Under the pieces are notes generated by a model that saw only the letters and a list, made by a program, of their open reading frames with translations, was not told the DNA's origin and made no database searches. This document shows positions 6,667 through 11,322 of a stretch of 13,012 bases of DNA, piece by piece (the stretch's first letter is position 1; the number at the start of each line of letters is the position of its first letter). The stretch comes from a virus: UHGV virus genome UHGV-0116252. One strand, given 5' to 3'. The translations under genes and the position numbers were made by a program.

Positions 6667-7341
6667 ATGAAAACAATCCATGACATCCGGCGGTCTAACG
6701 CCAGAAAACTGAGAGATGGTGTTGGCGGGAATTCTTCCTTTGCCACCATGATTGATCGCGAGCCAACCCAGACCAGCAGGTTTATGGGAGATGGTGCAAC
6801 TAAAAATATCGGTGACAGCATGGCACGGCACATCGAAAAATGTTTCGACCTGCCTGTCGGATGGCTTGATCAAGAACACCAGACAACGAACATCACAAAA
6901 AAACCTGACGTTTCAATCACTAACAAACAAATAACGTTAGTCCCTGTCATATCATGGGTACAGGCCGGAGCATGGAAAGAAGTTGGCTATTCTGAGGTTG
7001 ATTTGAGCACAGCAGAAACTTATCCCTGCCCTGTACCCTGTGGCGAAATGACTTATATCTTGCGGGTGATTGGTGATTCAATGATTGATGAGTACCGCCC
7101 GGGAGACATGATTTTTGTTGATCCTGAAGTCCCTGCCTGCCACGGTGACGACGTTATTGCATTGATGCACGATACAGGCGAAACCACCTTCAAGCGGTTG
7201 ATAGAAGATGGAACACAGCGTTATCTCAAAGCATTAAACCCAAACTGGCCTGAGCCTTACATTAAGATTAACGGTAATTGCTCTATAATTGGTACAGTGA
7301 TTTTCTCAGGAAAACCAAGAAGATACATAATAAAGGCCTAA
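6667..7341 (+). CDS. CI-type prophage repressor (HTH plus S24 LexA-like peptidase domain)
   Basis: 224 aa; N-terminal HTH region ending in VGWL, linker, then C-terminal S24 autocleavage domain with Ser motif VIGDSM and Lys motif TFKRL. Divergent from cro. Confidence 0.85.
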   Translation: MKTIHDIRRSNARKLRDGVGGNSSFATMIDREPTQTSRFMGDGATKNIGDSMARHIEKCFDLPVGWLDQEHQTTNITKKPDVSITNKQITLVPVISWVQAGAWKEVGYSEVDLSTAETYPCPVPCGEMTYILRVIGDSMIDEYRPGDMIFVDPEVPACHGDDVIALMHDTGETTFKRLIEDGTQRYLKALNPNWPEPYIKINGNCSIIGTVIFSGKPRRYIIKA

Positions 7342-7352
7342 TCAATATTTAT

Positions 7353-7376
7353 AACCTGCTTCGGCAGGTTTTTTTA
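7353..7376 (+). terminator. Rho-independent terminator after the repressor gene
   Basis: Stem aacctgc (7353..7359), loop ttcg, stem gcaggtt (7364..7370), followed by a run of T to 7375. Begins 12 nt after the CI stop. Confidence 0.65.
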
Positions 7377-7379
7377 TAC

Positions 7380-7412
7380 TTGACAATGTACCTTTGGGAT
7401 ACATAATGTATC
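7380..7412 (+). promoter_or_regulatory. pL-like sigma70 promoter with overlapping operator palindrome
   Basis: -35 TTGACA (7380..7385), 16-bp spacer, -10 CATAAT (7402..7407). Perfect palindrome GATACAT-a-ATGTATC (7398..7412) overlaps the -10, and an ATGTACC half-site (7386..7392) matches the OR half-sites. Confidence 0.55.
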
Positions 7413-7797
7413 TAAAAGAAACACAGCACAGGCAAGATTAAACAAAATTTGGTTGTAACACGGCGTATGGCACATGCGTCGTTAGCGGTCTGGGGACGTT
7501 AAAGGGGACAATCCACTCCTTGCTCGGGCAAACAAACCAGGTAGCCGGAATGTGCAAGCCACAGCCAGGTATGAGCGATTGATTCACCATCAAGGCGATA
7601 CGGTGTGACCACCAGGGAAGAGTCCTGGCTACAACACGAGAGCGCACTTCATCGACTCAACTTTGAGCTTTGTCGTTAAATTTTGAAATGGCGGAGTGCG
7701 CTCCCGGTTGTGGTGAACAGGTGTTTAACGGGAACTCCCTGCCCGTTACCCGGTTCGATTCCGGGCGCCCATCATCAATTTGCTGTGTTTAGTCTTT

Positions 7798-7826
7798 GCC
7801 CAGTCCGCACGATGGGCCATTTTTTC
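7798..7826 (+). terminator. Candidate weak intrinsic terminator within the ORF-poor region
   Basis: GCCCA (7798..7802) pairs with TGGGC (7813..7817) around a 10-nt loop, followed by cattttttc with six T at 7820..7825. Short stem, so weak. Confidence 0.3.
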
Positions 7827-7918
7827 ACACAGCCAGGTTTTATCGCTGTGCCTGAGTCCCCAACAGGAGAGGCCAAACCCGCAGCGTGACACCAGGGAAA
7901 GACCGGAGGAAGTACCAC

Positions 7919-7986
7919 GCCTGACCAGCGTTGACCATGAGCCTGACCAGCTCAAAACAGGAAAGACCAGCCCGGGCCTGACCAGC
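7919..7986 (+). repeat. Three exact copies of the 11-mer GCCTGACCAGC in non-coding DNA
   Basis: Exact copies at 7919..7929, 7941..7951 and 7976..7986, interspersed with related GAAAGACCAG (7961..7970) and TTGACCATGAG (7931..7941). Confidence 0.8.
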
Positions 7987-8126
7987 CCTGTACGGTCGTA
8001 ATGGAAACATAACGACGCCGGAAACGTAACCGGCACCCTTTAGATGGCAAAAGACCCGCACAAGGCGGGCCAGTTACCCCGAACGGCGACCAAACCATTC
8101 GGATTTATCACAAGTGACCAAACTTG

Positions 8127-8142
8127 TGATGAGGAAAGACCA
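8127..8142 (+). repeat. Copy 1 of conserved 16-nt motif TGATGAGGAAAGACCA, followed by ACG not ATG
   Basis: Same motif as at 8527 and 11699, including the GAGGA Shine-Dalgarno core; preceded by the hairpin TCACAAGT-gaccaa-ACTTGTGA (8108..8129). The position corresponding to the start codon reads ACG (8143..8145). Confidence 0.7.
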
Positions 8143-8191
8143 ACGACAGAGCCGCTGATCGGTTCTGAGTATACCCCACTAAGGAGTCGCT

Positions 8192-8512
8192 ATGGAAGCG
8201 CGCACAATCCCAGTAACACTCTTTATTCATTATGCAACTTCAACTTTCAGCCATGAAAAGCTGTTTATTGCGACGGTTGATATGTCAAAAAATTTTCCAG
8301 ACAGGTACATCCTTCTGGAAAGCCGCGAAATTGAAATTACCGTCAACCAGCCCCAGCCAATCGACATCATCGGTTTACAGGTTGAGCAGCTGCGTGAGCA
8401 AAAACAGAAAACAGCCGCCGACGCCCAACAGCGTATTGCTGCTATCGATGACAAAATCCAGCAGTTACTTTGCATCGAATACACGCCAGATACCGATGAA
8501 ATCCCCTACTAA
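8192..8512 (+). CDS. Hypothetical protein (106 aa) with predicted C-terminal coiled coil
   Basis: ATG 8192 preceded by AAGGAG (8181..8186) with 5-nt spacing; first convincing ORF downstream of the pL-like promoter. No family recognised. Confidence 0.6.
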   Translation: MEARTIPVTLFIHYATSTFSHEKLFIATVDMSKNFPDRYILLESREIEITVNQPQPIDIIGLQVEQLREQKQKTAADAQQRIAAIDDKIQQLLCIEYTPDTDEIPY

Positions 8513-8542: not shown

Positions 8543-10756
8543 ATGACCATTTTTAACGGCTTGTTAGAAGCGAAAAAAGGCGCGCTCAAAAACGGCGCGA
8601 TCCCGGCGCTGGCCATCGCCATCGACGCCCCTAACAAAAAAGTTGCCGAGAACATCATCATCGGCAAATTGTGGGAAGCCTACCCTGACCACGGCGACAA
8701 CTATTTCAAACCTAAAATCTGGGAAGATGCCCCGGGCCAACCGCGCCCAGGCGTTGGTGAGTTTGATGAGACGTTCGCCACAGAACACAGTTTTGATGGC
8801 GAAAAATGGGTAGTTAACACCCCCGTTGTAGATAGCGGTTCAGCAGATATCGCACAGGTTAACGACCTGATGAAACTGCCGGCTCGTGAACGATTCGCCG
8901 CCGTTCTGCTGTTCAGCCACGACGCCAACGAAGTCGACAGTGAATTGCTTGCGCAGACGCGTGAATACCTAGAGATGCTCGACAACAGTGATACTGACAG
9001 TGAGGATGAGGTTGACGCATTTAACCGCATCGTTCTTGATGCCATGGTGGCGTGTAAGCCCATCGAGTACATGCATATTGCTGGATTGAATAATCTGGTA
9101 CATGCAATTTTGGCAAGTTGCGATACCCAGGAACAAAACCCGACCAGTTGGACTATCTCCAAATTTATAAAAAAATGGGTAGAGAATCCCGGTAAACGCG
9201 ATGAAATGCTGCCGGAGGTAAAACTAGAAACAGCATCCGCACGTCCTTACCAACAGACTCACGCCACACTGGAACGTGAAATTGCCTGCGCCCTGTTACC
9301 CGTTGGCCCGGAAAAAATCACCCCCAGCGTCCTGAAAGCGGCAGACGAAATAATCAGCCAGGACCGGGAGGATTTTAAACGCTGGTCAATGGCCTTGCGC
9401 ACAACGGATCAGATCCTTGCCTATGACCGCGCATCAGTATTCGGTGTTATTCAGCGCGCCCCCGCAAAAGACACGTACCACTTCCCGCAATCCCTGCGCA
9501 GTCACATCGACAACTGGCTGCAAGCTAACGGGCAGCGTGATGCAAATGCTGTTGAAGAGAAGCCAAAGGAAGCAGCACCAAAGGATGATGTAAAAGTCAC
9601 CAACCACGGCGGCGGGCGATTCTCAATTGATGGAATGATGTCAGAAACACCCTCAAATCAGGGCGAAAAAAGCGAAGCAGCAAATGCTGGAGAACGTAGT
9701 TTGCAGCAGTTGCGTGAGCGGTTTGTCACGCCTCGCCATGTGTATGACGTACCTGAAAATAACGCCGTCTCACAGAGGGAACCTGCAGCTATTACCCCGG
9801 CAGAAGAGACTCCTCCACAAGAAAAACTTAGCGAGCAGGTAAAGGATCTGGTGCAGAACGTTGACGCGCTGGTTGAGCGGATCCATACCGAAGAGCACAA
9901 GCGGCAGAATGCAATCTCAGCTATCGAAACGGAGTTAAAGGACTCCGACGACACAGATAACCTGGCATTGTGGAAGAACGTATTCAAAACCGATGAGCGC
10001 TTCACCAGTGCTTTCTCTCAGAACGGCGGCGGCACATCCATCAACGGCACTTATATAGCGATGAAAGCGACTCGCGAATTTGGGCCGTTTGGTATTGGCT
10101 GGGGTGTAGAGGTGGTGGAAGAGCGTTTTGATAAAGGCGCACCGATAGTTCGCAAAAAACAGGTTGGTGAAAAAATAGAATGGGATCTGATTCAAGACGG
10201 TGTTGGCGGGTACCTATGTGAAATGCACCACACCATGAAAGTTAGAGTCTGGTACATATTGAATGGAGTGCGCGGTGAGTCCGAGGCTTACGGATGCACA
10301 CCTTATATCTACGACACTAAATACGGACCAACAAGCGACGGCGAAGCACCGAAGAAATCCTGGACGGATGCTGTTAAGAAAGCGCTATCCCCTCTCGGAT
10401 TCAGCGCCGATATTTTCATGGGCCTGTACGACAATCCGGAATACCGCCAGAGGAATAAAGCTGAGTTTGATATCAAGAATGCCAGCGAGAATGCGGAAGA
10501 TGCTACCCGTCTGCGTAAGGAACTGGATGAGAAGCTTATCAACGTTGCCAATACGCTGGCCTCCGCGGTAACCACTAACGAAGTAAACAAGGTATTTGGC
10601 CTCATCGCCCGCGAAGTGGATGTACACCGAAAAGCAGCAGAAGCCAAAGGCGATAAAGAATATTCATCGTATCTGGGATCGCGCCTGCGCCGTATCACCG
10701 ACATCAAAACTGAACGCCTCGCCGCCCTCACCGCTGCACAGGAGCAAACCGCATGA
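8543..10756 (+). CDS. Rad52/Sak-type single-strand annealing protein with an unrecognised ~490-aa N-terminal region
   Basis: Uninterrupted 737-codon ORF. C-terminal ~250 aa carries Rad52-fold blocks: GGGTSINGTYIAMKATREFGPFGIGWG (compare human RAD52 [27 protein letters not shown]), KVRVWYILNGVRGESEAYG, and KKSWTDAVKKALSPLGFSADIFMG (compare [21 protein letters not shown]). N-terminal 490 aa has no motif I recognise and includes an acidic stretch DNSDTDSEDEVD. Confidence 0.7.
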   Translation: MTIFNGLLEAKKGALKNGAIPALAIAIDAPNKKVAENIIIGKLWEAYPDHGDNYFKPKIWEDAPGQPRPGVGEFDETFATEHSFDGEKWVVNTPVVDSGSADIAQVNDLMKLPARERFAAVLLFSHDANEVDSELLAQTREYLEMLDNSDTDSEDEVDAFNRIVLDAMVACKPIEYMHIAGLNNLVHAILASCDTQEQNPTSWTISKFIKKWVENPGKRDEMLPEVKLETASARPYQQTHATLEREIACALLPVGPEKITPSVLKAADEIISQDREDFKRWSMALRTTDQILAYDRASVFGVIQRAPAKDTYHFPQSLRSHIDNWLQANGQRDANAVEEKPKEAAPKDDVKVTNHGGGRFSIDGMMSETPSNQGEKSEAANAGERSLQQLRERFVTPRHVYDVPENNAVSQREPAAITPAEETPPQEKLSEQVKDLVQNVDALVERIHTEEHKRQNAISAIETELKDSDDTDNLALWKNVFKTDERFTSAFSQNGGGTSINGTYIAMKATREFGPFGIGWGVEVVEERFDKGAPIVRKKQVGEKIEWDLIQDGVGGYLCEMHHTMKVRVWYILNGVRGESEAYGCTPYIYDTKYGPTSDGEAPKKSWTDAVKKALSPLGFSADIFMGLYDNPEYRQRNKAEFDIKNASENAEDATRLRKELDEKLINVANTLASAVTTNEVNKVFGLIAREVDVHRKAAEAKGDKEYSSYLGSRLRRITDIKTERLAALTAAQEQTA

Positions 10757-11322
10757 GCACCGCTATCGCTATTGCAAAAGAATATGCCAGCCTGATTGAC
10801 CTGCTGGAAACCTCCGACGAACTGACGCCAGAGATGATCGCCGACACGCTTGAAGGTATGGAAGGAGAACTGGGAGACAAACTGGACGCCATGATGGTCA
10901 TCTGCCGCAATTTACAGGGCAATGCCAATACCTGCGCTGAAGAAATGTCTCGCCTGGCTACCCGTAAGACGTCCTTTGAAGGCAAGGAAAAAGCAATCCG
11001 AAAGCATATGCTCGCCTGCCTGCAAGCTGCTGGCCTGGATAAACTGAAAACCGCAAAAAACACATTTACTGATGCACAGGGGGCTATCCGGGTAATTATC
11101 GATAGCAAAGATAAGATCCCGGATGAGTATGAAGGCGTGTCACTTGTTGATGTAGAAACGGTTATTACACCAAACAAGCGAGCCATTAAAGAAGTGATTG
11201 AATCTGCGGAGGCGGTTGCCGTCGAAATACTGGCGCGTGGAGAAACACCACCAGCCGAGTTATTAAACCCGGTACCAGGCGCACATCTGGAACGCGGCGA
11301 ACGTTCACTGAGGGTACGCTAA
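10753..11322 (+). CDS. Siphovirus Gp157-like protein (recombination-module accessory), tentative
   Basis: 189 aa, start overlaps the annealase stop (ATGA). Coiled-coil-like N-terminus, then IPDEY and PGAHLERG motifs that I recall as typical of the Gp157 family, which commonly sits next to Sak/Erf-type annealases. Confidence 0.55.
   Translation: MSTAIAIAKEYASLIDLLETSDELTPEMIADTLEGMEGELGDKLDAMMVICRNLQGNANTCAEEMSRLATRKTSFEGKEKAIRKHMLACLQAAGLDKLKTAKNTFTDAQGAIRVIIDSKDKIPDEYEGVSLVDVETVITPNKRAIKEVIESAEAVAVEILARGETPPAELLNPVPGAHLERGERSLRVR

Follow-up and report, generated by a model that had tools for sequence, protein, structure and literature searches.

A gene at positions 8543-10756 of UHGV-0116252, a stretch of virus DNA of 13,012 nucleotides (nt) that was analysed in full and is called the window here, raises the question of what a phage-type single-strand annealing domain is doing at the end of a very long N-terminal region, and what that region is. 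A first-pass annotation had described the product of this 737-codon open reading frame (ORF) as an oversized Rad52/Sak-type annealase, and its size is indeed unusual, as the stand-alone homologs of the annealase domain are mostly 238-284 amino acids (aa) long. In this study, structure prediction showed that the C-terminal 267 residues are modelled as a Rad52-fold single-strand annealing domain followed by a conserved three-helix tail, while sequence and profile comparisons showed that the N-terminal 330 residues fall into three modules that share homology with the N-terminal region of RecE-type proteins and with YdfE_N. The same scaffold was also shown to bear a PD-(D/E)XK exonuclease, a DEDD exonuclease or an annealase in related prophage proteins. 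Taken jointly, the identity of the annealase and that of the scaffold appear highly probable. The reading that we favour, with a probability of roughly 0.6, is that the gene encodes a modular recombination protein of an early-left (pL-type) operon, in which an annealase is joined to a RecE/YdfE-type scaffold that would act as a tether or adaptor. The parts of the gene are as follows.

8543-10756, plus strand: whole coding sequence, 737 aa, with RecE/YdfE-type scaffold, disordered linker, Rad52-fold annealase and helical tail (ORF list, translation, phrog_2489)
8543-8821, plus strand: D1, residues 1-93, small alpha/beta module probably corresponding to Pfam YdfE_N (PF27430), a remote homolog of the RecE head (PF06630)
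8870-9208, plus strand: D2, residues 110-222, acidic helical module (isoelectric point, pI, 4.6), the least conserved module
9260-9532, plus strand: D3, residues 240-330, helical module homologous to central RecE (about residues 262-370)
9533-9952, plus strand: linker, residues 331-470, acidic (pI 4.8), gap-rich, conservation 0.33, low occupancy
9953-10438, plus strand: Rad52-fold annealase core, residues 471-632, including the lysine pair KK 612-613 (nt 10376-10381) aligned with human RAD52 K152/R153
10439-10753, plus strand: C-terminal three-helix tail, residues 633-737, a candidate partner-binding domain (predicted model, conservation)

One gene or two

The ORF starts with ATG, 6 nt downstream of a Shine-Dalgarno-like GAGGAAAG, and its translation is free of stops. 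By our own arithmetic, 737 open codons would occur by chance with a probability of about (61/64)^737, or ~1e-15, at ~50% GC, and the earlier claim that the N-terminal part is coding is supported. Megablast identified the gene in 462 of 5426 complete E. coli genomes, all copies being chromosomal, with 95-99% identity and with full length in 439 genomes. Twenty-five full-length homologs sharing 31-77% identity, from Salmonella, Klebsiella, Pectobacterium phage ZF40 (NC_019522.1, gp07) and phage BUCT708 among others, retain the architecture; the phage relatives came from tblastn, and megablast of the phage collection gave no match to the gene. The phrog_2489 profile covers the whole protein (residues 1-736 on positions 1-728 of 728, 1298.9 bits) and carries the PHROG label 'exonuclease', and PGAP names the E. 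coli copies 'hypothetical protein' or 'exonuclease family protein'. The gene is a widespread, ordinary gene of E. coli prophages, and it is one fused ORF.

It had been suggested in the first-pass annotation that two genes might have been merged by a frameshift, and an assembly error could likewise have joined a gene of other function to a normal annealase gene of ~250 aa. Stand-alone annealase homologs are common, and in one metagenomic contig (L006) the N-terminal 200 aa and the remainder are found as separate ORFs. However, the fusion is kept at full length in the 439 E. coli genomes and in the 25 homologs, of which the most distant has 31% identity; a search of the junction (around residues 460-476) for a start codon, ATG or GTG, with a ribosome-binding site that could serve a stand-alone annealase found none; and the split in L006 cuts through D3, the second ORF starting from query residue 278, thus this contig looks damaged rather than a natural two-gene form. 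A merger of two genes can practically be dismissed. The comparison of homologs for a separate N-terminal gene returned, besides L006, only contig L005, which was rejected as a natural two-gene form on account of its frameshift-ridden look, with DnaB broken into several ORFs.

The segments of the protein are conserved to very different degrees. Expressed as the mean top-residue frequency per segment in the 25 full-length homologs, conservation was 0.67 in the annealase core, 0.64 in the C-terminal tail, 0.57 in D1, 0.50 in D3, 0.38 in D2 and 0.26-0.33 in the linkers.

The C-terminal annealase domain and its tail

Fold search with the model of the C-terminal domain revealed the fold of the Rad52 N-terminal domain, a beta-sheet with a long DNA-groove helix, and the model is nearer in structure to RAD52 and Mgm101 than to Sak. 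Residues 465-737 used as query retrieved many of the stand-alone relatives mentioned above, two of them with a precomputed PF04098 match, and 36 of the 42 homologs of the annealase domain in our alignment (A1) match Pfam Rad52_Rad22 at E <=1 (best 2.5e-6). Human RAD52 K152, R153 and R156 are basic residues of the inner groove that binds single-stranded DNA (ssDNA). The profile alignment to human RAD52 places the invariant KKSWTDAVKKAL helix on a stretch of the human protein, and puts K612/K613 on K152/R153; K613 is invariant and K612 nearly so among the 42 sequences, while the position of R156 is Ser and that of R55 is non-basic in this alignment (E ~0.7).

The Rad52/Sak-type core of the first-pass annotation is thus real as a domain, on the strength of the fold search and of the weak but family-wide Rad52_Rad22 matches, but its bounds have to be moved from residues 490-680 to 471-632, and residues 633-737 form a separate tail. 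The Gly-rich 'junction' noticed at the same time turned out to be no junction: the sequence concerned, NGGGTSINGTY (residues 494-504), belongs to the best-conserved parts of the annealase domain, and the true linker lies at residues 331-470. The tail is conserved about as strongly as the core. Its helices fall at residues 168-209, 214-237 and 241-272 of the predicted model, and fold search with the tail gave matches to helical bundles only.

Two scores weigh against this identification. Residues 465-737 of the window protein reach only 14.1 bits (E 0.045) against the Pfam Rad52_Rad22 cutoff of 20.3, and the profile of the 42-sequence family aligns 116 residues with human RAD52 in PDB at an E of only ~0.7; the annealase call therefore rests mainly on predicted structure. 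In the local Pfam scan the whole 737-aa protein has no Rad52_Rad22 match, the DUF1071/Sak family model matches neither the 737-aa protein nor the annealase domain, and PDB sequence searches with the whole protein and with the N-terminal profile yielded nothing meaningful. By Pfam thresholds the protein is no formal member of PF04098 or DUF1071; the fold and the key helix nonetheless match, and the protein would work in the manner of a Rad52/Sak-type phage annealase.

Compared with the Rad52/Rad22 annealases, which include human RAD52's N-terminal domain and yeast Mgm101 (PF04098), the window domain scores below the family cutoff, has an extra beta-hairpin at ~535-558, an insertion also missing from many stand-alone relatives, and carries a different three-helix tail. 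It also differs from the characterised Rad52-type annealases by its 470-residue N-terminal extension, of which no description was found. The Sak proteins of phages, such as lactococcal ul36 Sak and staphylococcal 80-alpha Sak, belong to DUF1071, whereas the window protein is fused to a RecE-type scaffold and has no DUF1071 match. Among the PHROG families, phrog_7838, a stand-alone annealase family of 242 positions, matches residues 471-720 and is labelled 'exonuclease'. Many records of Vibrio, Azospirillum and Sulfitobacter phages repeat the 'exonuclease' label for a Rad52-type annealase.

The N-terminal scaffold and its carriers

The first-pass annotation found no recognisable identity in the N-terminal region. 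Our comparisons give it one, since it is homologous to the N-termini of RecE-family and CP-933P-type exonucleases and to YdfE_N. The AlphaFold2 model of residues 1-345 consists of three separate modules, D1, D2 and D3. For D1, a precomputed match to PF27430 is present on every close homolog listed, including P0001 with 97% identity, where PF27430 is YdfE_N and PF27432 is YdfE_C, which is strong though indirect evidence for the window protein; the local Pfam scan assigned no family to the 737-aa protein, the scanned set apparently being without these two newer models. The profile of D1 aligned by hhalign with the RecE head PF06630 over 77 columns (probability 91.9%, E 7e-7), which suggests remote homology, and the Pfam scan gave no direct PF06630 match in the 737-aa protein. 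For D3, the NCBIfam RecE equivalog PRK09709 aligned residues 232-335 with RecE 262-370 (E 1.9e-12; 46.1 bits against a cutoff of 1269), phrog_607 matched the same region (E 8.5e-24), RecE-sized PHROG families matched residues 230-332, and Serratia RecE-family fragments shared 44% identity with residues 196-330. A further family, phrog_26058, matched residues 3-326. The region is acidic overall (pI 4.9), and the acidic stretch DNSDTDSEDEVD pointed out earlier was located within D2, at residues 147-158 (nt 8981-9016). The homologs P0006, P0012, P0013 and P0014 (804-844 aa) have a tandem duplication of approximately residues 87/110-235, that is of D2, and the variants P0156 and P0236 are without residues 127-351, so that D1 is joined almost directly to the linker and annealase.

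The N-terminal region is a known but functionally uncharacterised module. It is normally carried by exonucleases and not, as the first-pass annotation had allowed for, by Sak proteins. The N-terminal region of RecE is likewise without known function (PMC11611040). Rac RecE (exodeoxyribonuclease VIII) occupies the same genomic slot, between the early-left genes and xis-int, and has a homologous head (by hhalign) and central module, its residues 262-370 corresponding to residues 232-335 here. RecE has PF06630 at 2-178 and the PD-(D/E)XK 5'-3' exonuclease domain DUF3799 at 615-850, and its annealase, RecT, is a separate protein; in the window, by contrast, the scaffold bears the annealase itself, there is neither a nuclease domain nor RecT, and the neighbour is Gp157. 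The closest relative of the whole scaffold is the CP-933P-type exodeoxyribonuclease of phage Evi (826 aa), which matches residues 14-330 with D1-D2-D3 collinear (25% identity, E 4e-18) but ends in a DEDD Rv2179c-like 3'-5' exonuclease (E 7e-69) where the window protein has the annealase. No annealase gene adjoins the gene of this 826-aa protein in phage Evi (L003:3875-6355). The namesake of YdfE_N and YdfE_C, K-12 ydfE of the Qin prophage (L009:5079-5999), is annotated as a pseudogene overlapping IS2 and has a D1 match with 34% identity; from its sequence it looks like a truncated N-terminal remnant of a CP-933P-type gene.

How widely the scaffold is shared was surveyed by an exhaustive phmmer search with residues 1-345 against 1.84 billion representatives (E <=0.001). 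Only 132 proteins were found, thus the scaffold family is small. C-terminal effectors were assigned in the 77 representatives that reach 480 aa or more, with a hidden Markov model (HMM) built from A1 and with phmmer queries using the RecE and Evi nuclease domains.

C-terminal effector: number of 77 long scaffold proteins
Rad52-type annealase: 21/77
PD-(D/E)XK exonuclease: 10/77
DEDD exonuclease: 10/77
none recognised: 36/77

Nineteen of the 21 annealase carriers have a D1 head, one has a RecE head (P0317) and one is mixed; in P0317 Pfam confirms the PF06630 head only, the annealase domain being called by the A1-based HMM. The pairings confirmed by Pfam are D1 with DUF3799 (P0270), D1 with DEDD (P0288), PF06630 with DEDD (P0296) and PF06630 with DUF3799 (P0351). 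Since the scaffold is fused to annealases and to both DEDD and PD-(D/E)XK exonucleases, it is an independent, portable module, and the fused accessory region proposed among the options of the first-pass annotation is supported. The proteins without a recognised effector include a distinct class of ~600-670 aa (phrog_26058) and probably also truncated sequences. Members of this class (P0266, P0278, P0292, P0324 and P0363) have D1-D3 followed by a Pfam-unmatched C-terminus ending in a conserved ALTYQQQLTIAAL.GLCANP motif, which may represent a fourth effector type.

These relationships bear directly on whether the protein is an exonuclease with its catalytic site in the N-terminal region, as its database names would have it: PHROG 'exonuclease', PGAP 'exonuclease family protein' and the annotation of phage ZF40. 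The similarity to RecE-family and CP-933P-type exonucleases appears to speak for the same view. However, no nuclease family was detected in Pfam, NCBIfam and PADLOC scans, the Pfam scan gave no match to the DUF3799 PD-(D/E)XK domain in the 737-aa protein, and scans for Walker A, HNH and nuclease signatures found none in the N-terminal part, in agreement with the first-pass annotation. Conservation in D1 and D3 falls mostly on Ala, Pro, Phe, Trp, Lys, Arg and Thr, with no acidic/His catalytic set, and the N-terminal pI of 4.9 disfavours direct DNA binding by the region. An exonuclease is thus very improbable. The names are best explained by annotation transfer via the common non-catalytic scaffold, and the 'exonuclease' label that the gene usually bears is in all likelihood mistaken.

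Operon context and possible roles of the scaffold

The window corresponds to a lambdoid prophage's immunity and early region. Its minus strand encodes a Q-like antiterminator, an HNH protein and RusA, and further a methyltransferase-like gene, an O-like replication initiator and a cII-like gene. On the plus strand, an S24 cI-type repressor gene (6667-7341) is followed by a hairpin, a promoter-like site and ~780 nt free of ORFs. Next come the ORF of 106 aa, the 737-aa gene, the Sipho_Gp157 gene, an ORF of 60 aa, and the excisionase and integrase genes. Annotated records of E. coli CFSAN061769, where the locus lies by a tRNA-Ser gene, and of phages BUCT708 and ZF40 show the same gene order. No exonuclease gene is present between the repressor and integrase genes in the window. 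The features adjoining the 737-aa gene are as follows.

7353-7407, plus strand: terminator-like hairpin (7353-7370) 3' of the cI-like gene, then a strong sigma-70-like promoter (7380-7407, 11/12 matches), by consensus scan only
8192-8512, plus strand: 106-aa ORF (phrog_2479), ending ...DEIPY, conserved beside the fused gene
10753-11322, plus strand: Sipho_Gp157-family gene (Pfam), its start overlapping the stop of the 737-aa gene (ATGA, 10753-10756)

In E. coli, BUCT708 and ZF40 the Gp157 gene comes next after the fused gene, and in two unrelated contigs of metagenomic phages it likewise follows stand-alone annealases. The conserved core of the module is thus annealase plus Gp157, and the scaffold, seen in this analysis mostly in Enterobacterales, looks like an add-on. 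The 106-aa ORF has homologs beside the fused gene at L001:11650-11970, L004:3633-3956, L005:4581-4907 and L006:3658-3993, and stand-alone annealase loci have unrelated genes upstream. E. coli SSB ends in ...DDDIPF, and this tip is a docking peptide for many DNA-repair proteins; the C-termini of the 106-aa ORF and its homologs (DEIPY, VEIPY, NDVPF, HHIPF or TEIPF) resemble it, although such an end is not universal, the ZF40 homolog being without the tail.

The site at 7380-7407 is, from its match to the consensus, a candidate pL driving the operon. Between it and the first ORF, neither a credible ORF nor an Rfam family reaching the gathering score was found in 7410-8190 (~780 nt); an RprA-like match at 7717-7827 stays below threshold (37.4 bits against 70). 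Positions 7538-8148 recur with 99.8% identity in those E. coli genomes that match best. For some part of 7400-8200 there are matches in 1898 genomes, 515 places on plasmids among them, while megablast against PLSDB gave no match. A leader RNA, an antitermination RNA or a mobile non-coding element would each be a possible reading of this stretch.

As to mechanism, the roles in annealing, oligomerisation and scaffold interaction are inferred from the models and comparisons above. The annealase domain would form Rad52-like oligomers that coat and anneal ssDNA in phage recombination and replication, with Gp157 as a cofactor, and the ssDNA would be made by host nucleases, because the operon is without a nuclease of its own. 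The acidic, non-catalytic scaffold on its flexible linker would act as a tether or adaptor that delivers its effector, of whatever type, to a shared partner or site, perhaps a host nuclease, SSB-associated machinery, or DNA ends that it would help to hold together by analogy with full-length RecE, which enhances linear-linear recombination. This specific role of the scaffold is put forward tentatively, at somewhat less than even odds. Phage P22, with Erf and Abc1/Abc2, is a temperate enterobacterial phage whose annealase has no exonuclease of its own and works with a hijacked host nuclease. It offers a functional analogy only. Its accessory functions are separate small proteins and not an N-terminal fusion.

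The acidity of the region, with the pI of 4.6 in D2 around DNSDTDSEDEVD, would also fit a domain that counters host defence or inhibits a host nuclease, such as an acidic DNA mimic directed against RecBCD or restriction, fused to the annealase so that protecting and annealing would take place at one and the same DNA end. The early-left operon is where phages keep anti-host functions, and lambda Gam is not recognisable in it. However, structure and sequence searches gave no match to known inhibitors or DNA mimics, and the scaffold is also carried by exonucleases such as RecE. For RecET recombineering with double-stranded DNA, lambda Gam is usually added when the cells are recBCD+, thus an effective RecBCD inhibitor in the RecE scaffold is disfavoured. 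The adjoining Gp157 would be a more obvious candidate through its PHROG label 'Mu Gam-like end protection', itself unconfirmed, as Pfam gives Sipho_Gp157 only and the PDB sequence search found no relative. PADLOC matched no defence system in the 737-aa gene and three neighbours. We consider an anti-defence role of the scaffold unlikely.

It may alternatively be supposed that the region is evolutionary baggage, a RecE-like remnant from which the nuclease was swapped out and which, having no function of its own, is kept only for its promoter-proximal start. Mosaicism is high among lambdoid prophages, head and effector types occur in changing combinations among the carriers, and D2 and the linkers are poorly conserved. 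On the other hand, D1 and D3 are conserved across homologs down to 31% identity, and phage genomes would be expected to let ~1 kb of useless coding sequence decay or to delete it, yet only the rare variants P0156 and P0236 have lost parts of it. Mere baggage seems quite improbable. A more elaborate possibility, which is rather doubtful in our view, is that the scaffold is a shared docking module by which annealase and exonuclease carriers, possibly of different co-resident prophages, or a host nuclease or SSB-bound machinery, join into one recombination complex at a DNA end. If so, annealase, YdfE-type DEDD exonuclease and the N-terminus of RecE would be interchangeable heads on one 'recombination hub', to which the upstream small protein with its ...IPF/IPY end would also belong.

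Three further points must be set against the tether or adaptor reading as a whole. The N-terminal model is of moderate quality (pLDDT 77, pTM 0.39), so a cryptic enzymatic site is possible; 13 kb of prophage are visible, and an exonuclease could be encoded elsewhere; and with 36 of 77 long scaffold proteins lacking a recognised effector, a view of the scaffold as carrying DNA-end effectors is perhaps incomplete.

Databases already list the family, as phrog_2489 and Pfam YdfE_N, though its function is not correctly described there, and literature searches found no paper on an annealase-scaffold fusion, on the function of YdfE or on that of Gp157. The result is unlikely to surprise a specialist greatly. 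It means that hundreds of prophage genes of E. coli, Salmonella and Klebsiella, together with gp07 of phage ZF40, are labelled 'exonuclease' or 'hypothetical' yet encode an annealase. Recombineering works by means of phage annealases, RecE/RecT being one of its two classic systems, and the present family adds Rad52-type annealases that are native to Enterobacterales and come with a conserved Gp157 partner, as candidates for such use. The enigmatic N-terminus of RecE is thereby recast as a portable module, and its occurrence on three effector types gives simple comparative constructs for its function.

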